From assembly GCA_017510605.1 (NCBI GenBank), contig JAFWMQ010000008.1:82234-146233 (forward strand): DNA of 64,000 nt, written 5' to 3'. Below are positions 1 to 63,198 of this stretch, piece by piece. Under the pieces are notes generated by a model that ran no database searches, was not told the origin of the DNA, and worked only from the letters and a program-made list of their open reading frames with translations. Each line of letters begins with the position of its first letter. Position 1 is the stretch's first letter. The translations under genes were made by a program, and so were the position numbers. This stretch comes from Clostridiales bacterium. Lineage in GTDB: Bacteria > Bacillota > Clostridia > Saccharofermentanales > Saccharofermentanaceae.

Positions 1-797
1 TTTCCTTCCTTGATTGAATCAATTGCAAAGTTCATGTCGGCAAGTCTTAATTTCATCCACTCGGATGTTATCTCAAAGACTTCGGCTTCTGATACATCGC
101 TTGATCCTATTGTCATTGAATCGTTAAGAAACTTACGGTCAGCGACAATGGTTTTGCCTGTTGAATCATGAGTAAAGATCGAGTGATACGGATGTTCGAT
201 GCTTGCTACGACATAACCGTGGCTCGCAAGTTCCATATACATGGACGCGTTGCTCTGATAGTATCCGAAAGCACCATGACTGAAGATAACCAGAGGTATC
301 TTATCGTCTGTCCCTTCGGGATAAAAGAAATATACAGGGACTTCTCTGTATGAGCCGTCATTTTCGAATTCCTCGATGCGGCCGGTATCGATCATTATTG
401 CATTGGACTGCAGCACATTATATGGTCCGGTCAATACGCGGCCTTCATAATCCGTGAAGAGAAAGGCTGGGAGTATTGAAGTCCCGATAAGTGAAATGCT
501 GAGAAGCGTTCCGAGCACAATTGCCGCCTTCTTTTTGGTTTTGGTGTTTTTGTGGTTGGCCAACATAAAGATAACGGCAGCGGCAAGCCTTACGAGAAGC
601 ACTGCAATAAGGCCTATGAACCTGAAACTTGTATCAATTCCCGGAAGAGCAGCCATAATAAAGAAGAGTATAAGTTCTCCTGCGATAACAATAAGACGCT
701 TTGAAGTCCACTTTTTCACGGTGGTTGTCCTCGTAAGCCCGAAGATCATAAATCCGGTCTCCAGGAGGACCAGGATGGAAAATAGTAATATCGTCAT
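1..797 (-). CDS. Membrane-anchored alpha/beta hydrolase (PAF-acetylhydrolase/dienelactone hydrolase-like), truncated by the window edge
   Basis: Not in the ORF track. Translated by hand from ATG at 797 (SD GAGGTG): MTILLFSILV..., with N-terminal hydrophobic helices, then PLVIFSHGAFGYYQSN...ELASHGYVVASIEHP. Frame stays open to position 1. Confidence 0.85.
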   Translation of the reverse strand, partial: MTILLFSILVLLETGFMIFGLTRTTTVKKWTSKRLIVIAGELILFFIMAALPGIDTSFRFIGLIAVLLVRLAAAVIFMLANHKNTKTKKKAAIVLGTLLSISLIGTSILPAFLFTDYEGRVLTGPYNVLQSNAIMIDTGRIEEFENDGSYREVPVYFFYPEGTDDKIPLVIFSHGAFGYYQSNASMYMELASHGYVVASIEHPYHSIFTHDSTGKTIVADRKFLNDSMTIGSSDVSEAEVFEITSEWMKLRLADMNFAIDSIKEG

Positions 798-1012
798 AAT
801 CTGTCACCTCATTTTCTTTTGTTGAGATGACTATATGACAGCGCCGGGTTCCCGTTCAACAACTCCCGGGACAAGATGCAAAAACCGGCGGTGAGATGTC
901 TGAAAACAGAATTAGCAACTAAATATTCAAAGAAAATTAATCTTTCTTATACTATAATATCTTTAAACGATTACTGTGTTGCTGTATTTTTATGCCTTAT
1001 TCGGGGGTGTTT

Positions 1013-4000
1013 ATGCCGAAACAGGATGAGATTTTTAAATTAATAGCTGAATCTTTGCTGGTGGACTATTCCAGTATTTATTATGTTAATGCAGCCACCA
1101 ATGAGTATTATTGGTACTCGGCAAATCCTGAATTCTATTCGCTGAAGCTTGAGCAGTGCGGAGATGATTTCTTCGAAAACCTTATCCGCGACTGTAAAAA
1201 GGTCATTTATGAAGAGGACCAGCATATTTTTCTGGAAGATATCCAGAAGGAGAATCTTCTCTCTGCAATGAAGATCGGAAGCATGCAGAACATCGATTAC
1301 AGACTGATGATCAATGGTGTTCCCACATGGCATTCTTTGAGGCTGATCCGCGGTCTGGATGAAAATACAGACTATTTTATCCTTGGTGTTATCAATATTG
1401 ATGAAGAATACCACCACAGGGAGCAGGAAAAGGAAATAGCCGAACAGAAAGAGATCTACAACCAGATTACCTCAAGCCTCGCATGGCAGTATGACACACT
1501 TTATTATATTGATCTGGATACAAATACCTTTGTTGAGATCTCTTCTACCGATGAATATAAGAAGCTGAATGTTCCTGCGACAGGAAGTGATTTCTTCGCT
1601 GAAAGCAGAAGAAGCATACGCAAATATGTGCATCCTGAGGATCAGGAGAAGGCACTTAAGCTGCATTATAAGGACACCATGATCAAAAACCTGGCGCATA
1701 GGAATTCTTTTTCATTAACCTGGCGTCTGGTCGTTAATGATCAGGTAAAGAACATCAGACATACAGAGATCATGGCCTATGATAAGAAGCATATTATTGT
1801 CTGTATTGAAAATATAGATGATGAAGTCGCTGCTAACCTTAAGCTGACAGAGACTATGCAGAAAGGTGCCACATATACGCAGATCGCGGTGAGTCTGGCA
1901 TCCCAGTATGACCTGATCTATTACATTGATATTAATTCTACGCATTATAAGGAATATGCTACGCACAAGCTTTATGGTGAATTGGAAATACAGGAAGAAG
2001 GAGACGACTTCTTCGGAAATGCAGATCACAATGCAGACATGGTAATTCACCCTGAAGACAGGGAAAGAATCAAAAATTTCATTAATAGGGATAATCTCAT
2101 TTCCCAGCTCGAAAAGAGCAGACAGCTTGTCCAGGATTACCGTATGGTAGTCGGAAATGCAGAACCTCAATATACCAGAATGACTGTCAGCTGGTCTTCA
2201 GACAAAACGCATCTGATCATATGTATTGAGAACCGTGATGAGTATGTAAAGATCGAGAAAGAGCATCTGCTGGCGATCAATATGGCTAATGAGACAGCCA
2301 GAAAAGACGGACTTACAGGTATCAGAAATAAGACTGCTTTCCAGGAGTTTGAGAAAGAACTTCAGACAGAGATCGATGAGAACAGAAGTGATCTGTACGG
2401 AATCGCTGTCTGCGATCTTAATAACCTGAAACTGATAAATGATACACAGGGTCATAAAGCCGGAGACGAATACATCATTAATTCCTGCAAACTGATATGC
2501 CGTGTATTTGCCCACAGTCCTGTATTCAGGATCGGCGGTGATGAGTTCGTCGTAGTTCTGAGAACGCGGGATTATCAGAATTGTAAAGAGCCGGTAGAAT
2601 CTTTTAAAAGGCAGATAGAAGAGAACATCAGGATCGGATCAGGTCCTATAGTTGCTATAGGCGTGGCAGAGTATCAGCCGGATACTGATACAAATATTGA
2701 TGTTATTTTTAAATGCGCTGACGGCCGGATGTATGAAGATAAAACTCGTTTGAAAGAACTGAAACTTCTTGGCGAATCACATTCACTTAAAGAGTCTTCA
2801 AACGTTAAGACGATTACGGAAGACAGAAGAAAGATGCTTGATTCTCTCTTTAAGTCTTATGATGTGGTTTCAGAGGGAACTTATGTATATCTCTGTGATA
2901 TGAAATACGATTTCTCCAAGTGGTCCAAAAATGCTGTTGATGCATACGGTCTGCCTTCTGAATACATGTATGGCGCTGGAGACATTTGGGAAAACTTCAT
3001 CCATCCTGATGACAGGGAGGCATATCACAAAGGTATAGATGAGATCTTTGCCGGTGCAAGTTCCGGACATGATATGCAGTACCGGGCAAGAAAGGCTACC
3101 GGAGAATATGAAGTTTGTACCTGCAGGGGTGTTGTTATCAGAGACCTTTCCGGAGAACCCGACTATTTTGTAGGCACTATTCGCAATCATGGTTCCCAGG
3201 GACATATTGATTCTTTGACCGGACTTCGAAACCAGTATGGATTCTTCGAGGATCTTGATGGCTATATAAAAAGAAAAGCCACTGCATGTATTTTAATTGT
3301 CGGTATCAGCAAGTTTTCCGAGGTCAATGCAGTTTACGGATATCATTTCGGAAACAGAGTCCTGCAGCTTTTCGCAAGGAAAATATTTGATACTATCGGA
3401 AACAACGGTGCCTGCTACAGAATAGACGGAACGAAGTTTGCCATCATAAGCAATATGCTTTCTCTTGATGATATACGGGAAAAATACCAGGTGTTCCGCA
3501 ATTATTTCAGGGAAGTATTCCAGGTGGATGACAAGAGGGTTTTGCTTGAAACTAATTGCGGCGCGTTGAAGCTCGACCGTTTTGAATTTGATTCCCAGAC
3601 GGTTTATTCCTGCTTAAATTATTCTTACAGTGAGTCCAAGACCCGCTATCAGGGAGATATGGTCGTATTCCATAACGATCTTAATCAGGATAACAGACAG
3701 AGACTTGAGAAGCTTCATGCTATCAGAGCTTCAATAATGCACGGATACAGAGGTTTTTATCTGTTGTACCAGCCGGTGGTTGATGCTAAGACTGAGCAGC
3801 TGATATCTGCTGAAGCTCTTCTCAGATGGAAGAACGATACATATGGCGTAGTTCCTCCTGACCAGTTCATACCGCTTCTTGAATCAGATCCTCTTTTCCC
3901 CGATCTCGGAGAATGGATCATCAGGGAAGCGATCTATGCTGCGAAGAAGATCATAAAGAAGCTGCCGGGTTTTGTTATCAACATCAATTTGTCCTATACC

Positions 4001-4486
4001 CAGCTTCAAAAGCCTGATTTTGTTGATATGGTATTCCGCATACTTGAAGAGATGGGATATCCGGCTGATCACCTTTGCTTTGAGGTTACCGAACGATGCA
4101 GACTGCTTGATGTAAAGCTGATCAAAAATGTTACTGCAAGTCTTAAAGCCAGAGGCATTCTTATTGCGCTGGATGATTTCGGCACCGGATTCTCTTCTGT
4201 CAGTATCGTAAAGGAACTTCCTTTTGACATAATAAAGATCGATCAGGGTTTCGTTGCTAAGATCGAAGATAATAAAGTTGACAGGGAACTGATCAGACAC
4301 TTCGCAGGTTTGGCATCGCTCTTTGGTGCTAAGGTCTGTGTTGAAGGAATCGAGACCGAAGGAATGAGAGATATCCTTCAGAAACTCAATGTCGGGAGCT
4401 TCCAGGGCTACTATTACGCAAAGCCTCTGTTGCTTGATAAATTCTTCGAATGGGAGGCGGAACGCGATGCGCAAAAAAAGACCTGA
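1013..4486 (+). CDS. PAS-containing diguanylate cyclase/phosphodiesterase (PAS-like x2-3, GGDEF, PAS, degenerate GGDEF, EAL)
   Basis: DGLTG...FRIGGDEF (intact); second domain DSLTG...YRIDGTKF (degenerate); EALLRW, DDFGTG, EGIE. PAS-like HPED/HPDD segments. Start chosen at ATG 1013 after GGGGGTG. Confidence 0.93.
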   Translation: MPKQDEIFKLIAESLLVDYSSIYYVNAATNEYYWYSANPEFYSLKLEQCGDDFFENLIRDCKKVIYEEDQHIFLEDIQKENLLSAMKIGSMQNIDYRLMINGVPTWHSLRLIRGLDENTDYFILGVINIDEEYHHREQEKEIAEQKEIYNQITSSLAWQYDTLYYIDLDTNTFVEISSTDEYKKLNVPATGSDFFAESRRSIRKYVHPEDQEKALKLHYKDTMIKNLAHRNSFSLTWRLVVNDQVKNIRHTEIMAYDKKHIIVCIENIDDEVAANLKLTETMQKGATYTQIAVSLASQYDLIYYIDINSTHYKEYATHKLYGELEIQEEGDDFFGNADHNADMVIHPEDRERIKNFINRDNLISQLEKSRQLVQDYRMVVGNAEPQYTRMTVSWSSDKTHLIICIENRDEYVKIEKEHLLAINMANETARKDGLTGIRNKTAFQEFEKELQTEIDENRSDLYGIAVCDLNNLKLINDTQGHKAGDEYIINSCKLICRVFAHSPVFRIGGDEFVVVLRTRDYQNCKEPVESFKRQIEENIRIGSGPIVAIGVAEYQPDTDTNIDVIFKCADGRMYEDKTRLKELKLLGESHSLKESSNVKTITEDRRKMLDSLFKSYDVVSEGTYVYLCDMKYDFSKWSKNAVDAYGLPSEYMYGAGDIWENFIHPDDREAYHKGIDEIFAGASSGHDMQYRARKATGEYEVCTCRGVVIRDLSGEPDYFVGTIRNHGSQGHIDSLTGLRNQYGFFEDLDGYIKRKATACILIVGISKFSEVNAVYGYHFGNRVLQLFARKIFDTIGNNGACYRIDGTKFAIISNMLSLDDIREKYQVFRNYFREVFQVDDKRVLLETNCGALKLDRFEFDSQTVYSCLNYSYSESKTRYQGDMVVFHNDLNQDNRQRLEKLHAIRASIMHGYRGFYLLYQPVVDAKTEQLISAEALLRWKNDTYGVVPPDQFIPLLESDPLFPDLGEWIIREAIYAAKKIIKKLPGFVININLSYTQLQKPDFVDMVFRILEEMGYPADHLCFEVTERCRLLDVKLIKNVTASLKARGILIALDDFGTGFSSVSIVKELPFDIIKIDQGFVAKIEDNKVDRELIRHFAGLASLFGAKVCVEGIETEGMRDILQKLNVGSFQGYYYAKPLLLDKFFEWEAERDAQKKT

Positions 4487-5534
4487 TATTGCATTGATCA
4501 GTGATGAAGTAAACTCCCGCGAGGAACTGCTTGATTCACTGATGAGATATATCAGGCTTTCCAGAGCCGACAGAAGGTTATCTGATTATTATTCCGTAAA
4601 ACGCTTCGGATGCAGTGTTCCGGAGATGTTTTTTACTATGAGCTACCGCTTCAAGATCGAATCTCCGATCCCGATCAATGAGACTTTTTTCATATCCGAG
4701 CCGGATCTTTACTATAACAAAAAAGCGTTTGATGATGGCCAGATCAATCTGTGTTTTGTAATCGGTTATTCCGGGTCAGGTAAGTCTGTTCTTACACGCG
4801 AATATAAAGGTGAGGGAATTGAGAAAGTATCTCTTGATGATCTCGTTTGCGCAAAGGACCATTTTACACTTGATGAACTGAAAGAATCAGGCGATCTTCT
4901 ATATTCGTTCTTCACGGGGATCGGGGAAAAGTATTATATATCCCTGAATGAACGTGATTTCTTTGCGGATAACAGTAAGGTGTTTGTGGATTTCATTAAG
5001 TATGCATGTGATTACGCTCCTTCACATCCGGAGAAGAGGTTTATCTTAGAAGGAATCTGGACTTACCTGTTTTTTGATGATCCTTCTGAATTCAGCGAAT
5101 ATGCTGTTTTTATGAAGGGAACCTCGCTTATCAAATCCAATTTCAGAAGAATGGTAAGAGAAGCCGGCAATAATGTCAGTGAGTCTGTGGACAGGCTGCT
5201 TGAATTCGGGATATATGCCAAAGATACCGCTCTCCGCGATATTAATGTTGACAAGTGGAGACGTTATTTTGAGAAATGTCCGGAGACCATTATCAGGCTC
5301 GAAAACAACAGCTTTACGATCCTTAGCAAGAACATCATGTCGGAGATCTACAACATCAATGAGCTCTTTGTTCACGGCGATGATGAAGGCATCAGGGAAA
5401 TAATGGAGCATACAAAGAAGAGCACGGACATGGATATTTCCGGGAAAGCTATTATTTCTGACGAATGCAGAAAAGCACTCATCGATCTGCAGAAGGTCAC
5501 CGGAAATCAGGATCCCGAAAAACTCAAAGGCTAG
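4467..5534 (+). CDS. Hypothetical P-loop protein, nucleoside/nucleotide-kinase-like
   Basis: Walker A VIGYSGSGKS, then VSLDD and ILEG. SD GGAGG before ATG 4467. Overlaps the upstream stop by 20 nt. Confidence 0.65.
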   Translation: MRKKRPDIALISDEVNSREELLDSLMRYIRLSRADRRLSDYYSVKRFGCSVPEMFFTMSYRFKIESPIPINETFFISEPDLYYNKKAFDDGQINLCFVIGYSGSGKSVLTREYKGEGIEKVSLDDLVCAKDHFTLDELKESGDLLYSFFTGIGEKYYISLNERDFFADNSKVFVDFIKYACDYAPSHPEKRFILEGIWTYLFFDDPSEFSEYAVFMKGTSLIKSNFRRMVREAGNNVSESVDRLLEFGIYAKDTALRDINVDKWRRYFEKCPETIIRLENNSFTILSKNIMSEIYNINELFVHGDDEGIREIMEHTKKSTDMDISGKAIISDECRKALIDLQKVTGNQDPEKLKG

Positions 5535-19005: not shown

Positions 19006-19755
19006 ATGGCACAGCAGAATATTTACGACAATGATAGATTCTATGAGAATTTCAAAGGCTTAAGAAGCGACGGGATCAACTTCAATGACGTTATCGAGAC
19101 GCCAATAATCACCGCAATGCTTCCTGATCTTAAAGATAAGAAGATCCTTGATATCGGCTGCGGAATGGGTCAGCATGCGATGCAATATTCAAAGGCCGGT
19201 GCTTCATCGGTCCTGGGTATTGATATCTCTGAGAAGATGCTTGCATTTGCGTGTGAGAATAATACCGCGGATAACATCACATACCGCAGACTTGCGTTTG
19301 AGGATCTTGAACAGATAGATGAGAAGTTTGATGTAATTACGAGTTCTCTGGCTTTCGATTATTCTGAGGACTTTGCATTGCTTATGAAGAAGATATTTGC
19401 CCTTTTGAACGATGGTGGGCATCTGGTATTCTCGATGTCCCATCCGATCTCGACCGCATATGATGGTGTTTATGACAGATATACGAGAACTGCGGAAGGC
19501 GAGAGGCTCTATGCAAATCTTCACAACTACAGCATAGAGGGAGAGCGTCATTTTAAATGGGTAGTTGATGATTACGAAGTCTATCACCGTAAAATATCGA
19601 CGCTGATCAACAGCATTGCTTCGGCAGGTTTCATCCTTGAAGAATGTCAGGAATCGATGGTGCCGGATGATATCCTTAAAGAGCATCCGGATATGTTCGG
19701 AGGTGTCGTTCACCAGCCGGACTTCATATTTTTCAGGTGCAGAAAAGAAAAATAA
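19006..19755 (+). CDS. Class I SAM-dependent methyltransferase
   Basis: ILDIGCGMG; GIDIS; FDVITSS. Confidence 0.92.
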   Translation: MAQQNIYDNDRFYENFKGLRSDGINFNDVIETPIITAMLPDLKDKKILDIGCGMGQHAMQYSKAGASSVLGIDISEKMLAFACENNTADNITYRRLAFEDLEQIDEKFDVITSSLAFDYSEDFALLMKKIFALLNDGGHLVFSMSHPISTAYDGVYDRYTRTAEGERLYANLHNYSIEGERHFKWVVDDYEVYHRKISTLINSIASAGFILEECQESMVPDDILKEHPDMFGGVVHQPDFIFFRCRKEK

Positions 19756-19781
19756 AGAGGAGCCCTGAGGCTCCTCTTTTT
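19754..19781. terminator. Bidirectional intrinsic terminator
   Basis: AAAGAGGAGCC-ctga-GGCTCCTCTTT(TT) between convergent genes. Confidence 0.88.
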
Positions 19782-19800
19782 CTATCCCTTATTATTCCGT

Positions 19801-20010
19801 TCAATCTTTCCTGTATTCCAATATGTCACCCGGCTGGCAGTCCAGTGCATCGCATATTGCTTCAAGTGTTGAAAACCTTATGGCTGATATCTTGCCGTTT
19901 TTCATTTTCGAGAGGTTGACGTTCGATACGCCGACCTTATCGGATAAATCGTTCAGTGAGATCTTGCGGTCTGCCATTACTCTGTCTAATCTTAATATAA
20001 TCTGTCCCAT
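19801..20010 (-). CDS. XRE/Cro-like HTH regulator (YozG-like)
   Basis: SLNDLSDKVGVSNVNLSKMKNGK...LDCQPGDIL; typical partner of DUF2975. Confidence 0.9.
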   Translation of the reverse strand: MGQIILRLDRVMADRKISLNDLSDKVGVSNVNLSKMKNGKISAIRFSTLEAICDALDCQPGDILEYRKD

Positions 20011-20020
20011 AAGAGCCTCC

Positions 20021-20611
20021 TTACAAAGTCTCGTCTGACTGGATCTGTAAGGTCTTGCCGTAATCGAGGATTGTATTTACTGCCCATGTCATGAGCAGGC
20101 CCAACAATCCAAGCCCTGCGTTTGTCGTGAAGAACAGAAGACCGCTCGATACAATAAGCACGAGGGTTACTCTCTTCCTTATCTTGTCTGTAAAAGGCGT
20201 GTCTTCCTTTTCAATCATTGTAAAGACGGAATTGATCAGCTTAAGCAATACGGCAACGGTCGCTGCAAATATACCCATAGCTAATGTGTAAATACCGTAC
20301 ATTATGCAGTTGGGATGGTCATCTATTGCTTCCTGGAGAGCTGGAATATCTGACTCCAGATCATCTGCATCCGCAAGATCGATGTTAAACAGTTTTGCAC
20401 TTACGAGTTTATCGGTAGTGCTGGCATATCCCGATTCCCGAGCCTCAATGAGCATATCATCAAACTTTCTCCCTGATTGAAAAATCCAAATGCTTGCGAC
20501 CAGGCCTGAGATACAACCAATGACGGCAATGATAAACAGGATGTTCGAAACGACTTTCCCGGCATGACAGCTCTTCTTTATCTTAGCTATCTTTACATTC
20601 TCTTCATTCAT
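20021..20611 (-). CDS. DUF2975-like membrane protein
   Basis: TM helices, DTPFT, C-terminal GKTLQIQSDETL. SD AAGGAG 9 nt before ATG 20611. Confidence 0.82.
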   Translation of the reverse strand: MNEENVKIAKIKKSCHAGKVVSNILFIIAVIGCISGLVASIWIFQSGRKFDDMLIEARESGYASTTDKLVSAKLFNIDLADADDLESDIPALQEAIDDHPNCIMYGIYTLAMGIFAATVAVLLKLINSVFTMIEKEDTPFTDKIRKRVTLVLIVSSGLLFFTTNAGLGLLGLLMTWAVNTILDYGKTLQIQSDETL

Positions 20612-20659
20612 AAATCCAAACTCCTTATGCATTAATCTATCACCTTCGAAGATGGCTTC

Positions 20660-20712
20660 ACTATACTCCGGGAATTAATCTTTGTCAACAAGAAATTAAC
20701 GATAAACGTTAA
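20660..20712 (-). promoter_or_regulatory. Sigma-A promoter and probable XRE operator
   Basis: Minus strand TTGACA (20683-88), 17 nt, TATAGT (20660-65). Palindrome TTAACG-N5-CGTTAA at 20696-20712. Confidence 0.7.
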
Positions 20713-20760
20713 AAATTATTCGAGTAGCGTTGTGGCGGGTTGCTGTGTTCTTCCTGTGCA

Positions 20761-20861
20761 GTTGTATAGCCAATGTTTGGCTGTACCTTACATTTGCAGT
20801 GAAAAAAAGCTGGAAACAGGTCGAAAATTACTGCAATTGTTTGGCATATCCATACAGTTGC
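20761..20861 (+). repeat. 101-bp direct repeat, copy 1 (hairpin-forming)
   Basis: Ungapped manual alignment to 22079..22179 gives 83/101 identical. Confidence 0.93.
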
Positions 20862-21145
20862 AATAACAGTTTTGATACCATCAACATTAATCAGCGTTAT
20901 TGAACGATATAGATAGCTTTTTGAGATCTCCTGCCTGCGAAAGCCAGATGCGGTTAAGTTCGCTAATTGACTTCTCAGATTCAAATCTGACGATGTAATT
21001 GTAAATTTTGCAACAAATGTAAAATTGCCCCCCTGAATTTGAGACTTTTTGAAAAAAGTTGAGACTAGTCTCACGGGTAATGTGAACATAGGGAGTTCAT
21101 AATATATGTGTAAGGAATAATACTTGAAAGCAGGAGGTTGACAAT

Positions 21146-22012
21146 ATGGAAAGAATAATTCTTCCTATGAAAGTGCATGCCGTTAAACTTGAATACAGAA
21201 GACTCATACTTGATAAAATGATTCACGGATATTTTTGCGTAAGGAGAGGGAAGAAGACAGTTGTTATAACTCATGATCCTGAAAACCCTCGTTTTACAAC
21301 AAGGCATCCGAGGTTTCTTTGTATTTCCTCCAAGCTCGGAAAGATATATTCGGAGAAGATCATCAGTTATCTCCGGATCAAGTCCGAATATGATTCTTTA
21401 CTCAACAGTTGGAATGCAACATATTGTATTGCTCCGCCAAGAGTTAATTTCCCGATAAATCAGTATTATGATCCTCACTATATGAATAATGAATACTTCA
21501 ATAATCAAAAGGCGAATCTCGGACATTATGTTCCTGATAATCCGACTTTCAGTGAAGACGGAGAGTTAAAGTCAAAGAACGAATTAATGGCTGCTGGACT
21601 GCTACATCAAATGGGAATTCCGATTAAGTATGAAACTGAGATTTATATAGAAGAAACAGATGAGAAGATAAATCCGGATTATCTTATCAGTTTCTATGAG
21701 ATTGACAGATGTGCATATCTGGAAGTGTTAGGTATGAATGACAAAGGAGATTACGCTGTCAGGACATCTTCTAAGATTAACAGTTACTCAAAGGGTCAGT
21801 ATAGACCTGGCAGGGAAGTGATCTATGTTCATATGTATGATAAGTACAATTTTGACGGCGTATATTTTGTGGAGCAGGTATTATCTGCGTTCGACAGTCT
21901 GATACCTGACAGTGCGTTGGAATGGGATTCTAATCTACGGAATATACAAGTCTCTTCCGCTGAAGAAGTGAACAATCAAACACTTAATGATCAAACAGTA
22001 CCTGCTTGTTGA
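21146..22012 (+). CDS. Hypothetical protein with C-terminal PD-(D/E)XK/Vsr-like nuclease motif
   Basis: LKSKNE...LLHQMGIPIKYE...INPDY...YLEVLGM. SD AGGAGG. Visibly AT-rich relative to neighbours. Confidence 0.65.
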   Translation: MERIILPMKVHAVKLEYRRLILDKMIHGYFCVRRGKKTVVITHDPENPRFTTRHPRFLCISSKLGKIYSEKIISYLRIKSEYDSLLNSWNATYCIAPPRVNFPINQYYDPHYMNNEYFNNQKANLGHYVPDNPTFSEDGELKSKNELMAAGLLHQMGIPIKYETEIYIEETDEKINPDYLISFYEIDRCAYLEVLGMNDKGDYAVRTSSKINSYSKGQYRPGREVIYVHMYDKYNFDGVYFVEQVLSAFDSLIPDSALEWDSNLRNIQVSSAEEVNNQTLNDQTVPAC

Positions 22013-22078
22013 GAAGTGAGGAGTTATTGTATTTGTGATGGTAAAGCAGGGCCGATGATGCTATGAAGTTTGAGCCTG

Positions 22079-22179
22079 GTTGTATAGCAAATGTTCGGCA
22101 GTGCCTTATATTTGCAGTGAAAAACAGTCGAAAAGAGATTAAAAATCACTGCAGCTGTTCGGCATAGCCATACAGTTGC
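22079..22179 (+). repeat. 101-bp direct repeat, copy 2
   Basis: Same length as copy 1, with identical GTTGTATAGC and CATACAGTTGC ends. Confidence 0.93.
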
Positions 22180-22215
22180 CGTGACAGAATTCATTAAGTC
22201 AGTTTTATAATGTTC

Positions 22216-22932
22216 TCACTTCCACGGTCTGGCCTTGCCGATCCAGCCGTTGGCTTTCCAATACTTATAATCGGTATATTCCGGATTGTCTTTCCCCAGC
22301 TTTGTCTGAAGTATGCGGCAGGCATAGAATTTGCACTTTGCCATAATGCCGGCGTGAGCAGGCTTTCCGTAATCGATGAGCGCGAACTTGCGGGCAGTCT
22401 TTGCTATGCTTTTTAACATTGAAGAGCGTTTTTTCTCCGGAAGCTTATCCCAGACTATTTCTCCCATGAGCTTATAACTGCACTTTTTGATATAGCTTAC
22501 ACCCCACCAGGAGAGGCTGTCCTTTATGTCTTTGGCGGTAGAGTTTTCTCCTGAACCGAGACATTGCGTGATGATGACGGCGCGCTTTCCGAACATCTCT
22601 TTGGCCGGGCGGTGAGGCATCCATCTGTAGCCGAAATGATCGAGCATTGCCTTCATAGCGCCTGTAGCATGGAACACATATGCCGGGGAAGTAAATACGA
22701 AAAGATCAGCTTCCAGCAGCGCCTTTTCTATCGGCTGGACATAGCATGCATCCTTGCATAATTCCGGTTCTTTCCTGAAGCATGTCGTGCATCCTGAGCA
22801 GAAGCCCGGACAGTCTTTTGGAAGATAGAATTCCGTTATTTCCGCCTTGCCTCTGAAAGGTTCAAGAAATGCTTCTTTGAGCCTGTATGTGACGCCTCTT
22901 TTTTCTGTTCCGTTTATTACTGTTATCTTCAT
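22216..22932 (-). CDS. Flavodoxin-like NADPH-dependent FMN reductase family protein (Fe-S flavoprotein-like)
   Basis: ITVINGTEKRGVT; CSGCTTC; FTSPAYVFH. Confidence 0.85.
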   Translation of the reverse strand: MKITVINGTEKRGVTYRLKEAFLEPFRGKAEITEFYLPKDCPGFCSGCTTCFRKEPELCKDACYVQPIEKALLEADLFVFTSPAYVFHATGAMKAMLDHFGYRWMPHRPAKEMFGKRAVIITQCLGSGENSTAKDIKDSLSWWGVSYIKKCSYKLMGEIVWDKLPEKKRSSMLKSIAKTARKFALIDYGKPAHAGIMAKCKFYACRILQTKLGKDNPEYTDYKYWKANGWIGKARPWK

Positions 22933-22956
22933 ATCCAGCTCCGGTGTTCTCGAAAA

Positions 22957-23652
22957 TCAGGCAGCCTTCCAGGGCCTTGTCTTGCCGAGCCAGCCCTGAT
23001 CCTGCCAATACTTTTTCTCTTCTTCTCCTGCGCCCATCCCTTTGTTCTGCATCATGCGCATCATGGAAAAGAGGAAGCGCGTCTTTATTCCTGCACGGAC
23101 ACTCGAAGTTTTGAGCTTTTTAGCAAGTGCTGCCATGTCTTTATTTATCTTTTCCTTGAGTTCAGGCTTTACCTGGTCCCAATTTGCGGCCTGAATAGCT
23201 TTGCCGTAACTCTTTATGTACGGAATGCCCCAATAGAGAAGCGTATTTGTAACGTCTTTTACGGCCGATTTTGCGCCTGCTCCTGCAGCGGTCGAGATGA
23301 CGACGGCCTTTTTGGAGAACATGGATGCGCGCGGTTTATGAGACATCCAATAGGTGAAGGTGAGATCGATAAATGCCTTCATCGGAGCAGATGAGCGCAT
23401 GCAGTAGGTAGGCGTGGTAAAGATGAGAATATCTGATCTTTCTACCACATCCATAATCCGTTTTTTCTCATCGAAATATGGGCACAGCGATTCGTCTTTT
23501 ATGCAGCTGCAGCAACCCGAACAGAAATGATTTAAGTCCCTCGGCAGAAAGAATTCGTGAACCTCATTCTCTCCCAGGTTATCAACAAGGATCTTTCCGA
23601 TGTTATATGTGCTGCCTTTATGATTCTGTCCGTTAATAACAGTAATGATCAT
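22957..23652 (-). CDS. Flavodoxin-like FMN reductase family protein, tandem paralog
   Basis: ITVINGQNHKGST; CSGCCSC; TTPTY. Shares the GWxGKxRPWK end with its neighbour. Confidence 0.85.
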   Translation of the reverse strand: MIITVINGQNHKGSTYNIGKILVDNLGENEVHEFFLPRDLNHFCSGCCSCIKDESLCPYFDEKKRIMDVVERSDILIFTTPTYCMRSSAPMKAFIDLTFTYWMSHKPRASMFSKKAVVISTAAGAGAKSAVKDVTNTLLYWGIPYIKSYGKAIQAANWDQVKPELKEKINKDMAALAKKLKTSSVRAGIKTRFLFSMMRMMQNKGMGAGEEEKKYWQDQGWLGKTRPWKAA

Positions 23653-30946: not shown

Positions 30947-31192
30947 TTTTGCCTATGTTTTTCGCGATTTTTGATAGGCAAAACCCTGTACGGTGCCTGT
31001 CCACAAGATTCGGGGTCACGTCCGGAAACAGATTCCGACTCACCGTCCGACTTTTCGCGCGCGAAAACACGGAGAAAAAGTCGGAATTCCCAAAATCCGA
31101 CTTTTCTTCCGACTTTTTAGGCTTTACAGGTCGGATTTTTCCGGCTGAACGATGCCGCTTTACAGGTCGGATCTCCTCGACTGAATGAAGCC
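30947..31192. repeat. REP-like palindromic/iterated intergenic element (TCCGAC core)
   Basis: Seven TCCGAC/GTCGGA cores, a 16-bp palindrome TTTTCGCGCGCGAAAA, a 10-bp-stem hairpin and a 36-bp tandem duplication. Confidence 0.75.
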
Positions 31193-35821: not shown

Positions 35822-36705
35822 GTGATAATCTTGATATTAATGAAATGAATCAGTCTCAGGAGAAGGCCACGAAGCTCTCAGTCTTATCCGAGCTTAACGG
35901 AGCTTCTATCGGTGTAGGCATCGCGCTTATCTGCGTAATAATTGCAAGCGTTATGTTTTATATCTTTATGAACCTGTCGCCTAAAAAGACCGTTAAGGTC
36001 ATTGACGATGCCAATCTTTTTACGAGCCAGGAACTCGACAATATTACCGAAGAAGCGAAAAGACTTTCTAAAGAGAAAGATATCAACGTAGTCATCGTTA
36101 CTACTAAGGACAAAGGCAATAAATATTCGAATTCTGATGATGATGAGAAGAGATTTGCCGAAGATTTTTATATGGATCACGTAAAGACGGTTCCGCTTCA
36201 GAATAATTCGGGAGTCTGCATCCTGATCGATGTTACGCTCGATTATCAGGGCGGAAGATTCTTCTGGCTTTACACATACGGAACCGCCCACTTTGCTGTT
36301 GATGATGACGATTGTTACAGACTTTTCAGGAAATACATAACGCAGCTTGGAAACGGGGAATACGGTACCGCTGTTGAAGGTATCACTAAAGATCTCAAAT
36401 CATTCTCGTACCAGAATTACGGAGCCATAGTTTTCTTTACGATCGTTATTCCGATAGGATTGGCTTTGGTTATTACTGCTCTTGCATCTCCTAAGAGAAG
36501 ATTGGATAAGATGCCTGCGATCAGTACTTATTCCATTCCCGGAACCAACAAAGTCGAAAAACATGATGTTTTCAAGAGTAAAAAGGTTATTCACCATGAA
36601 TCTTCGTCAAGCGGCGGAGGAGGCGGCTTCTCCGGCGGTGGCGGAGGCGGTTTCTCCGGTGGCGGAGGCGGCGGCTTCTCCGGCGGTGGCGGCGGACGCT
36701 TCTGA
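35818..36705 (+). CDS. TPM (DUF477) domain membrane protein with Gly-rich tail
   Basis: VIDDANLF, VVIVTT, GVCILID; C-terminal SSSGGGGGFSGG...GRF. Confidence 0.85.
   Translation: MSDNLDINEMNQSQEKATKLSVLSELNGASIGVGIALICVIIASVMFYIFMNLSPKKTVKVIDDANLFTSQELDNITEEAKRLSKEKDINVVIVTTKDKGNKYSNSDDDEKRFAEDFYMDHVKTVPLQNNSGVCILIDVTLDYQGGRFFWLYTYGTAHFAVDDDDCYRLFRKYITQLGNGEYGTAVEGITKDLKSFSYQNYGAIVFFTIVIPIGLALVITALASPKRRLDKMPAISTYSIPGTNKVEKHDVFKSKKVIHHESSSSGGGGGFSGGGGGGFSGGGGGGFSGGGGGRF
36613..36702 (+). repeat. In-frame 3x (G5-6-F-S) repeat
   Basis: GGCGGxTTCTCCGGxGGx units read directly. Confidence 0.85.
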
Positions 36706-62212: not shown

Positions 62213-62923
62213 TCACCTGAGTTTTTTCGCGAGCCTGCCTGTAAGATCATATAATGCATATTCGATTATCAGGACCGCTGTGATTAATATGACAAGACCT
62301 GCTAAATAAAGACTCTTTCCCGTAAAGTTGTGAATCCATTCCAAAGGCGAATTCTGAGGCGGGTAGCTGAGGAACATATAGTTCTGGCCGGACCTGGTGT
62401 TAAGAAGATATATCGGAGGTACCACGATGAGAAGAAACAGGTACGGATACCAGAAATGCCTGAAAGATGCGTGTGCCTTGCCTTTGACAAGAAAGGCCAG
62501 AGGGATAAAGACCAGTAATGAATGAGTCAGGAAACACAGCAGAGGAAGATATGACCAGAAGGGTCTGTATGTCCAGTCTGGAAAGAGCAATGCAGCAACG
62601 GATCCCGGCATGATGAGAATAAGTGATATCTCAGTAAAGAATGATCGTGCTTTCCCGTGTGTGAATGATGCCGCGAGATTAACAAAAATACCGAGGTTGC
62701 ACAGGTGGAACGGCAGAAAGCCCATAATATCGCCGCCTTCACGTACGAGCAGGATATCCTGAACTGTCTCACCGATCAGGGTTATGAACGACAGGATAAG
62801 CACGGTGAGATCAGCAGTTTTGTCTGAGCTCCTTCGTAAGATCAGAAGCCCTATGGTTATCGCAACAGTTATTGTAATGAGCATACCGATGTGCTCAGGA
62901 CAGAAATGCTCGAAAAAATTCAT
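62213..62923 (-). CDS. YwaF/TMEM164-like integral membrane protein
   Basis: LPFHLCNL, ALLFPDW, THSLL, NYMFL; multiple TM helices. Confidence 0.8.
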   Translation of the reverse strand: MNFFEHFCPEHIGMLITITVAITIGLLILRRSSDKTADLTVLILSFITLIGETVQDILLVREGGDIMGFLPFHLCNLGIFVNLAASFTHGKARSFFTEISLILIMPGSVAALLFPDWTYRPFWSYLPLLCFLTHSLLVFIPLAFLVKGKAHASFRHFWYPYLFLLIVVPPIYLLNTRSGQNYMFLSYPPQNSPLEWIHNFTGKSLYLAGLVILITAVLIIEYALYDLTGRLAKKLR

Positions 62924-62969: not shown

Positions 62970-63088
62970 GGGGTAAATAGTTCAGGTAAAAGTTCAGGTA
63001 GCAGCCTGAAGAATTACCTAAAAAAAAGAGTAAATCAGACGAAATTCGGGTAAAAGTTCAGGTAGTAGCCTGAACTTCTACCTGAACT
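62970..63088. repeat. REP-like iterated inverted-repeat element (AGTTCAGGTA core)
   Basis: Two 64-bp-period units, each with two forward and two inverted core copies. Confidence 0.8.
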
Positions 63089-63198
63089 ATCAAGGAACCG
63101 GTTGGATGAAAACTAATGTCTTTTGTGCATTTCCACAGATTGCAAAACATATAATATAAATTATATTGTAGTCAAACAAAATCAACTTTGAGGTTTAT

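Follow-up and report, generated by a model that had tools for sequence, protein, structure and literature searches.

An unannotated gene family with a predicted PD-(D/E)XK nuclease core and flanking 64-nt palindromic arrays in Clostridia

A nuclease-type gene between two palindromic arrays

The window analysed here is a stretch of 64,000 nucleotides from a Clostridiales bacterium (assembly GCA_017510605.1, contig JAFWMQ010000008.1, positions 82,234 to 146,233 of the forward strand), and it carries a gene of an unannotated family, encoding a protein with a predicted PD-(D/E)XK nuclease core, that is flanked on both sides by short arrays of palindromic sequence. A first-pass annotation had seen in the locus a candidate undescribed element, in which an orphan nuclease gene of restriction fold belongs together with the repeats on its flanks, and this core claim holds. 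The two 101-bp repeats it reported (20761-20861 and 22079-22179) were recovered as described: they match without gaps at 83 of 101 positions (92 of 116 when extended to 20876 and 22194), their starts lie 1318 nt apart, and they begin with 10 identical nt (GTTGTATAGC) and end with 11-12 identical nt (CCATACAGTTGC). As a measure of chance, the best ungapped 101-nt match in three shuffles of the window (offsets 200-5000) had 53 identities, and the pair is by far the longest repeat family of the window.

Only one sizeable open reading frame (ORF) lies between the copies (21146-22012, plus strand, 288 amino acids), starting 284 nt past copy 1 and ending 66 nt ahead of copy 2. In agreement with the earlier description it is AT-rich (GC content 0.375, versus 0.436 for the window), encodes the motifs KSKNE...KYET...NPDY...LEVLGM and runs opposite to the genes on either side (20021-20632 and 22216-22932, both on the minus strand). 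Inspection of the ORFs of the region revealed no transposase or recombinase near the gene, tyrosine recombinases included, again as had been stated.

Each copy folds as an extended, imperfect hairpin (copy 1 at -33 kcal/mol, z-score -4.1; copy 2 at -38 kcal/mol, z-score -4.9), which is how they had been named, but each is really made of two units of a 64-nt periodic array of compound palindromes, and the folding arises because these units are palindromic and alike. A unit, here as at the homologous loci described below, consists of four half-sites, a1 and a2 in direct orientation followed by a2' and a1' inverted; successive centres are separated by 12, 10 and 12 nt, and about 30 nt lead to the next unit. 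The 64-nt register of copy 1 aligns with the orthologous arrays at three other loci (L001, L042 and L044). The features of the window that concern the gene and its arrays are the following:

20761..20876, no strand: copy 1, upstream two-unit palindrome array, a direct repeat with 22079-22194, in 64-nt register
20763-20770, 20774-20781, 20785-20792 and about 20794-20802: unit 1 of copy 1, half-sites a1, a2 (TGTTTGGC), a2' and a1', in that order
20838-20845: half-site a2 (TGTTTGGC) of unit 2 of copy 1, a unit that lies 64 nt further on
21040..21073, plus strand: three TGAGACT boxes, two direct (21040-21046 and 21060-21066) and one inverted (21067-21073)
21098..21103, plus strand: CATAAT, a -10-like hexamer whose position is kept across the family
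21132-21137, plus strand: AGGAGG, likely ribosome-binding site
21146..22012, plus strand: nuclease-type gene of an unannotated family, recognised from its ORF, homologues, AlphaFold2 (AF2) models and RNA contigs
21146..21430, plus strand: N-terminal alpha/beta domain (residues 1-95), predicted local distance difference test score (pLDDT) 89, without a PDB neighbour
21560..21931, plus strand: predicted PD-(D/E)XK core (about residues 139-262), from conserved residues, matches to Bax1, DUF790 and PDC-S68, and Foldseek
22079..22194, orientation as copy 1: copy 2, downstream two-unit palindrome array, with half-site a2 (TGTTCGGC) at 22092-22099 and 22156-22163
62977..63090, no strand: solo two-unit array with different half-sites, period 64, without an adjoining nuclease gene

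The 288-residue protein had no match in Pfam or NCBIfam, even at an E-value of 10, only weak matches in PHROGs, and nothing meaningful in a single-sequence search of the PDB. More than 213 close homologues, all of them unnamed, were found in rumen and gut Clostridia (Saccharofermentans, "Clostridiales" and Lachnospiraceae metagenome-assembled genomes, MAGs), and a profile search of 1.8 billion representative proteins (E <= 1e-3) extended the family to 1786 clusters at 50% identity, mostly of full-length proteins of 240-290 residues. Ten distant members that were tested had no Pfam family. This large family, abundant in rumen Clostridia, is missing from both Pfam and NCBIfam.

Sequence comparisons support a PD-(D/E)XK nuclease fold for the C-terminal core, in line with what the motifs had led the first-pass annotation to propose. 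A profile built from 70 diverse members picked up the Bax1 nuclease domain (PDB 6p66_B) at E 2.1e-5, the match extending for about 70 residues (S..E / PDF / E..G), two members matched Pfam DUF790, the Bax1 family, at E 3e-6, and the C-terminal region of the PADLOC candidate PDC-S68 matched residues 141-223 at E 1.4e-10. When the AF2 model (pLDDT 75 overall and 70-90 over the core, with a poorly modelled linker) was searched with Foldseek, nearly all of the top 50 neighbours were PD-(D/E)XK proteins, all of them weak matches with none better than E 0.02, including R2 RLE, TT1808, lambda exonuclease, XisH (probability 0.95), cap-snatching endonucleases, MGME1 and Cas4. The more specific assignment to the Vsr/DUF559 type did not survive: the succession of motifs, E...(F/Y)PD(F/Y)...E-x-x-G within a core like that of restriction endonucleases, is a likeness at the motif level only, no Vsr or DUF559 match was obtained in Pfam, NCBIfam or PDB sequence searches at any threshold tried, and the nearest characterised relative of the core, as judged by sequence, is Bax1.

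Among the 70 members, which share 15-60% identity, D178 (NPD) and G196 (LEVLG) are invariant and S143 and E146 (KSKNE), E163 (KYET) and E193 are at least 90% conserved, and the canonical lysine of E-x-K is replaced, giving E-x-x-G; K142 and K144 in the first helix are invariant among 27 close homologues. By residue conservation the predicted active site looks intact, and the retention of E146, E163, D178 and E193 down to 15-20% identity suggests an active enzyme.

Family genes occur singly in the midst of ordinary genes of the chromosome, and their positions are conserved from one species to another, as in XRE/membrane protein - gene - flavodoxin and DUF218 - gene - YjbR. In the window, an XRE regulator and a membrane protein lie on one side of the gene, and two flavodoxin-like genes and a TetR regulator on the other. 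No homologues were found in the phage, plasmid and viral collections searched. One homologue (L013, 3001-3822) has an in-frame stop at codon 21 and is probably a pseudogene; its flanking arrays are still well formed and 89% alike.

Arrays at homologous loci

The association of gene and repeats extends well beyond the window. When 33 homologous loci were compared, counting repeats within about 450 nt of the gene, repeats were present at about 30 of them, upstream, downstream or on both sides. Arrays on both sides were seen at seven loci (the window, L001, L013, L016, L019, L027 and L029) and about 23 more were one-sided, so that the bracketing emphasised by the first-pass annotation is real at the window and six other loci and is only one of three arrangements. 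Nor is the window's own repeat scattered, given that four metagenomes contained only the two copies at this locus. About 240 kb of flanks of the homologous loci held no other such repeats.

The arrays have 2-5 units that are 70-90% alike, with a period of 64 nt in most loci (range 62-66) and spacers mostly conserved between units. In 28 units from 15 loci, complementarity averaged 6.7/8 between the inner arms and 7.0/8 between the outer arms and a1 equalled a2 at 6.7/8, versus 2.1, 4.4 and 3.7, respectively, after shuffling. In one homologue of 28% identity (L036), a 17-bp palindrome (GACCGCATnnnTGCGGTC) occurs at 1695, 1759 and 1823, with one further copy past the gene, and the spacing is exactly 64 although the 47-nt spacers are unrelated. 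Such a strict spacing, a multiple of the helical repeat that persists even between dissimilar spacers, fits helical phasing and favours recognition as DNA.

Other kinds of repeat were seen at some of these loci. Six tandem copies of a 10-nt sequence (CGCGAAGACT) lie upstream of the distant homologue P0220 (L040:1852-1915), in place of a 64-nt array. Compound hairpin modules of about 110 nt, composed of GCACCTGC..GTCAAGGG..CCCTTGAC..GCAGGTGC plus AGAGTTGGGG..CCCAACTCT, stand as inverted repeats around the gene and its promoter in L007 (2700-2830 and 3800-3930) and L012, and downstream only in L002, L006, L008 and L013; these may represent a repeat family of their own, a terminator or a substrate for inversion.

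A single gene bracketed by direct repeats had earlier suggested a 1318-bp unit that could be freed by recombination between the repeats, here weighed as a unit of the insertion sequence (IS), miniature inverted-repeat transposable element (MITE) or cassette type, and the enclosure of gene and promoter by the inverted modules in L007 and L012 points the same way. We consider this barely credible. The assembled contigs of eight runs, in which rare forms would be hidden, gave no trace of an excised form, whether as a deletion or a circle junction; the locus is without recombinase or transposase and has no near-identical copies elsewhere; most homologues have arrays on one side only; no integron core sites occur at the repeat ends; and the family is absent from the mobile-element collections mentioned above.

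Upstream of nearly every family gene there is a second, constant element, consisting of two direct TGAGACT boxes 20 nt apart, often with a third inverted box. In most family loci the boxes lie at -52 to -132 from the start codon, and a CATAAT hexamer is kept at -34 to -48 across the family. The TGAGACT module, which appears operator-like, is inverted in a clade that has only downstream arrays.

Transcription of the gene was evident from assembled RNA contigs, the only kind of expression data used here. They cover the window gene, one of them starting at 21131, and a metatranscriptome contig (21931-22144) runs from the 3' end of the gene into copy 2; likewise, RNA contigs of L031 span 3035-3659 (one of them 3217-3575), from the gene into its downstream array. 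These unbroken contigs raise the possibility that the system works at the RNA level, the 64-nt repeats being structured RNAs that the protein binds or processes, either in the manner of a type III toxin-antitoxin (TA) pair or as control of its own mRNA through the 3' untranslated region. A tandem array beside a nuclease-type gene is indeed what is seen in toxIN and cptIN (PMC3401426), and of 35 arrays examined, 23 fold better as the sense strand and 12 as the opposite strand, with 220 versus 157 G.U pairs and with z-scores of about -4 to -5 for the window copies. The preference for the sense strand is weak, however, and a G+T skew can account for the difference.

Several properties of the arrays argue for DNA instead. 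The half-site is directly repeated within each arm, which would serve no purpose in a hairpin, and this favours recognition as DNA; so do the arm mismatches, because G.T (20) and A.C (16) mismatches on the sense strand show no wobble bias. Left and right half-sites that are conserved yet not complementary occur both in L032 and in the window lineage (there at two central positions), and units are no more than 70-90% alike. Moreover, arrays occur on either or both sides of the gene, the upstream ones lie beyond its promoter module with no terminator in between (none was found separating copy 1 from the gene), the fold of the protein is not that of ToxN/AbiQ, and Rfam, searched at a permissive threshold over 19500-23500, had no match on the repeats. 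An RNA-level function is thus unlikely.

Array flavours, turnover and a candidate reader

The half-site sequence, which we refer to as the flavour of an array, differs from locus to locus. It is GTTCGGC in the window, GTACGGC in L001, TTCACGGC in L007, ATACGGC in L008 and L019, GAACGGC in L026 and L032, CCAGGC in L011, GTTCAGTC in L006, TTCAGTT in L009 and L045, TTGTACA in L003 and TTGAGGC in L027. Paralogues within one MAG or on one contig differ in flavour (L001 versus L002, L012 versus L013).

Within a locus the half-sites change in concert. Between the window lineage (the window, L042 and L044) and the orthologue L001 all eight half-sites are altered together, and the two flanking arrays are about 94% alike in L042 (judged by eye) versus 82% in the window. 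In one strain from metagenome run X3 the first 46 nt of copy 2 equal those of copy 1, whereas the window differs at five positions (20761-20806 versus 22079-22124), and this identity has the appearance of a tract of recent gene conversion involving both arrays. From such comparisons, the two flanking arrays of one genome evolve in concert. One array of L011 (3805-4070) is mixed, with CCAGGC in units 1-2 and GAACGGC in units 3-4. The switch falls inside unit 3, suggesting that a unit was replaced or that arrays recombined.

Within the protein, the candidate for recognising the flavour lies in the N-terminal domain. Its model consists of a helix (residues 2-24), a three-stranded sheet (27-33, 36-43 and 56-59) and a second helix (63-93), and searching the PDB with this domain alone by Foldseek gave no structural neighbour (best E 0.24). 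Residues 26-62 are the most variable stretch between paralogues. Array similarity correlated weakly with protein identity over residues 1-25 (Mantel r 0.23, p 0.013) and 26-62 (r 0.17, p 0.037), but not with identity of the nuclease core (r about 0). In addition, L026 is a mosaic: its residues 26-62 are 76% identical to L032 and 46% to L011, the remainder is 91-100% identical to L011 save for residues 63-95 (64%), and the half-site that L026 has in common with L032 is GAACGGC. These observations are suggestive, not proof, that residues 26-62 read the array sequence.

Co-variation of flavour with the N-terminal domain, and not with the nuclease core, would also fit a non-cutting protein that acts as a DNA-binding regulator or in an architectural role, in which the nuclease fold is a scaffold or DNA-binding domain, the arrays are operators or enhancer-like sites for autoregulation and the solo arrays mark a regulon. 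Phased palindromic half-sites are typical of operators, many arrays lie upstream, and both copy 1 and the solo array of the window are in divergent promoter regions. On the other hand, the catalytic-type residues E146, E163, D178 and E193 are at least 90% conserved even among members of 15-20% identity, many arrays are downstream only or between convergent gene ends, as copy 2 of the window is, 8-20 half-sites per locus are too many for autoregulation, and the promoter already has a separate operator-like module in the TGAGACT boxes. We therefore regard such a regulator as rather unlikely; were the protein only an autoregulator, it would still represent a new DNA-binding family with an unusual operator design.

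Solo arrays and empty sites were also found. The solo array of the window (62977-63090) consists of two units of period 64, with GTTCAGGT twice followed by GCCTGAAG/ACCTGAAC. Its neighbours are a YwaF/TMEM164 gene (62213-62923, minus strand) on one side and, on the other, a gene for a dCache sensor histidine kinase (from 63200). The orthologous site is empty in three relatives with 87%, 76% and 72% YwaF identity, and in L054 (YwaF 83%) three units of another flavour (TTCCCGAC) occupy it. A further unit of the solo flavour, on another contig of equal depth and in different flanks, is present in the metagenomes containing the window genome, which also have at least three loci with the family promoter module. 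Since orthologous solo sites are empty or other-flavoured among relatives, arrays turn over by gain, loss and replacement without regard to the gene, and a given flavour can be present at more than one locus.

Independent turnover of arrays that lack the gene could also mean that the gene is a latecomer, a homing-endonuclease-like parasite of pre-existing arrays of one flavour that were made by some other mechanism. Homing endonucleases of PD-(D/E)XK and Vsr-like folds exist (I-Ssp6803I and I-Bth0305I), and homing would account for array units on both sides of the gene, which at seven loci lies between units of the same orientation. It fits poorly with the conserved syntenic positions of the gene across species and with paralogues that are only about 60% identical and hence give no sign of recent homing. 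Furthermore, the window arrays duplicate the same two units and are not halves of one split array, and in the sequence examined gene-linked arrays are at least as frequent as solo arrays, which makes a homing origin quite improbable.

A candidate partnership and its likeness to known systems

We favour, while granting it slightly less than an even chance, the explanation that each protein recognises its own array as DNA, in a partnership resembling that of repetitive extragenic palindromic (REP) sequences with REP-associated tyrosine transposases (RAYTs) and built on a different enzyme. The module would then have two parts, the gene for a sequence-specific protein of PD-(D/E)XK fold and one or two adjoining arrays of its own recognition sites. 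The four half-sites of a unit would lie on one face of the helix, 64 bp being about six helical turns, and the protein, dimerised through its two long N-terminal helices, would bind them cooperatively, either as double-stranded DNA or as extruded cruciforms, with the variable residues 26-62 reading the sequence. The Bax1-like core could then nick or cut in or beside the array, and repair of the break could homogenise the flanking arrays, add or remove units and seed or erase solo arrays elsewhere. It is doubtful, if well worth considering, that this full sequence of events operates, that is, that a PD-(D/E)XK nuclease whose N-terminal reader can be exchanged gives rise to private 64-bp-phased arrays, keeps them homogeneous and now and then seeds new ones, as a hitherto unrecognised class of partnership in Clostridia and a functional analogue of REP/RAYT of separate enzymatic origin.

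A number of observations weigh against this proposal. The TGAGACT boxes are a constant site that must be recognised by some factor, which could be the nuclease-fold protein itself, and in that case the arrays would be left without an assigned reader. The Mantel correlations are weak, and the co-transcription of downstream arrays with the gene, like the better folding of the sense strand, would fit a role as RNA. In the four metagenomes the window flavour is confined to its two copies at the locus, so that dispersal, if any, is far below REP levels, and solo arrays with two or more units are rare, at roughly one in every 150-300 kb examined (one in the 64 kb of the window and none in the flanks of the homologous loci). 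Four of five distant homologues, all four on short contigs, showed no array. Finally, a chromosome with arrays that its own nuclease could cleave would require some control, and none was identified.

The resemblance to REP/RAYT, which the first-pass annotation had offered as one explanation, is one of logic and not of membership, because there is neither a HUH enzyme nor high-copy dispersal. As in REP/RAYT, a nuclease-type gene that is inherited vertically, as a rule in a single copy, has palindromic repeats of its own on its flanks, each paralogue has a private repeat flavour, the repeats form regularly spaced tandem arrays similar to bacterial interspersed mosaic elements (BIMEs), and repeats also occur away from the gene and are polymorphic in presence between relatives. 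In contrast, RAYT (TnpA-REP) is a HUH Y1 transposase, whereas the enzyme here is predicted to be PD-(D/E)XK (Bax1/DUF790-like), with no Y1_Tnp or HUH match in Pfam, NCBIfam or a PDB profile search. REPs number hundreds, while the window flavour has two copies at its locus and the solo flavour two loci; there is no GTAG/CGTC tag; each unit has four half-sites in strict 64-bp phase; and the evidence points to double-stranded recognition and not to single-stranded hairpins.

Bax1, an XPB-associated structure-specific endonuclease, is the sole characterised protein with significant sequence similarity to the core, but it has about 470 residues and extra domains and works with the XPB helicase, whereas the family described here has no helicase neighbour, an unrelated novel N-terminal domain and attached arrays. 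Plasmid centromeres and iterons (sopC-SopB, parC-ParR) are alike in having helix-phased tandem palindromic sites beside the gene of the binder, with specificities that differ between relatives; the present system differs in being chromosomal, without NTPase partner or replicon, and in having a nuclease fold with catalytic-type residues.

Other known arrangements were considered and rejected. Type III TA loci (toxIN, cptIN, tenpIN), which are common in gut Firmicutes, also have a short tandem locus-specific array beside a nuclease-type gene, but their array is always upstream, with a terminator before the gene, repeats of 34-45 nt that are near-identical and a ToxN/AbiQ fold; here the array is on either or both sides, the 64-nt units are 70-90% alike, and the gene has its own promoter and a different fold. 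They were discarded on array placement, the PD-(D/E)XK fold and the lack of a terminator, and no ToxN/AbiQ match was found in PADLOC, Pfam or NCBIfam. A CRISPR array does not fit, with 2-5 units, mostly conserved spacers and no cas genes, unrelated spacers being seen only in L036 (three repeats). Integron attC sites, or clusters of attC sites lacking integrases (CALIN), were rejected because the repeat ends (GTTGTAT...GTTGCAA / GTTGCCG) do not fit RYYYAAC/GTTRRRY by inspection and there is no integrase, and an IS or MITE because the flanking repeats are direct, with no transposase and no other copies.

We found no description of this family or of such arrays in Pfam, NCBIfam, Rfam, PADLOC, the PDB or the collection of papers searched. 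CRISPR-Cas, REP/RAYT, type III TA and TIGR-Tas were each first noticed as an odd repeat next to an odd gene, and if the pairing proves functional, a new gene-plus-repeat system would stand beside them. Were each protein to read its own array, the paralogues would form a natural series of matched reader and DNA-site pairs from which the reading of DNA by a small domain could be worked out. That solo arrays come and go at fixed intergenic sites is also relevant to the origin and loss of repeats in the genomes of bacteria.

Two further repeats were noted elsewhere in the window. The stretch 31032-31192 opens with a palindrome of 56 nt (31032-31087) and closes with a tandem pair of 36-nt repeats (31121-31192), the sequence being unrelated to the 64-nt arrays, and at 36613-36703 there is a tandem repeat of 24-nt period (GGCGGAGGAGGCGGCTTCTCC) that probably encodes a Gly-rich repeat.

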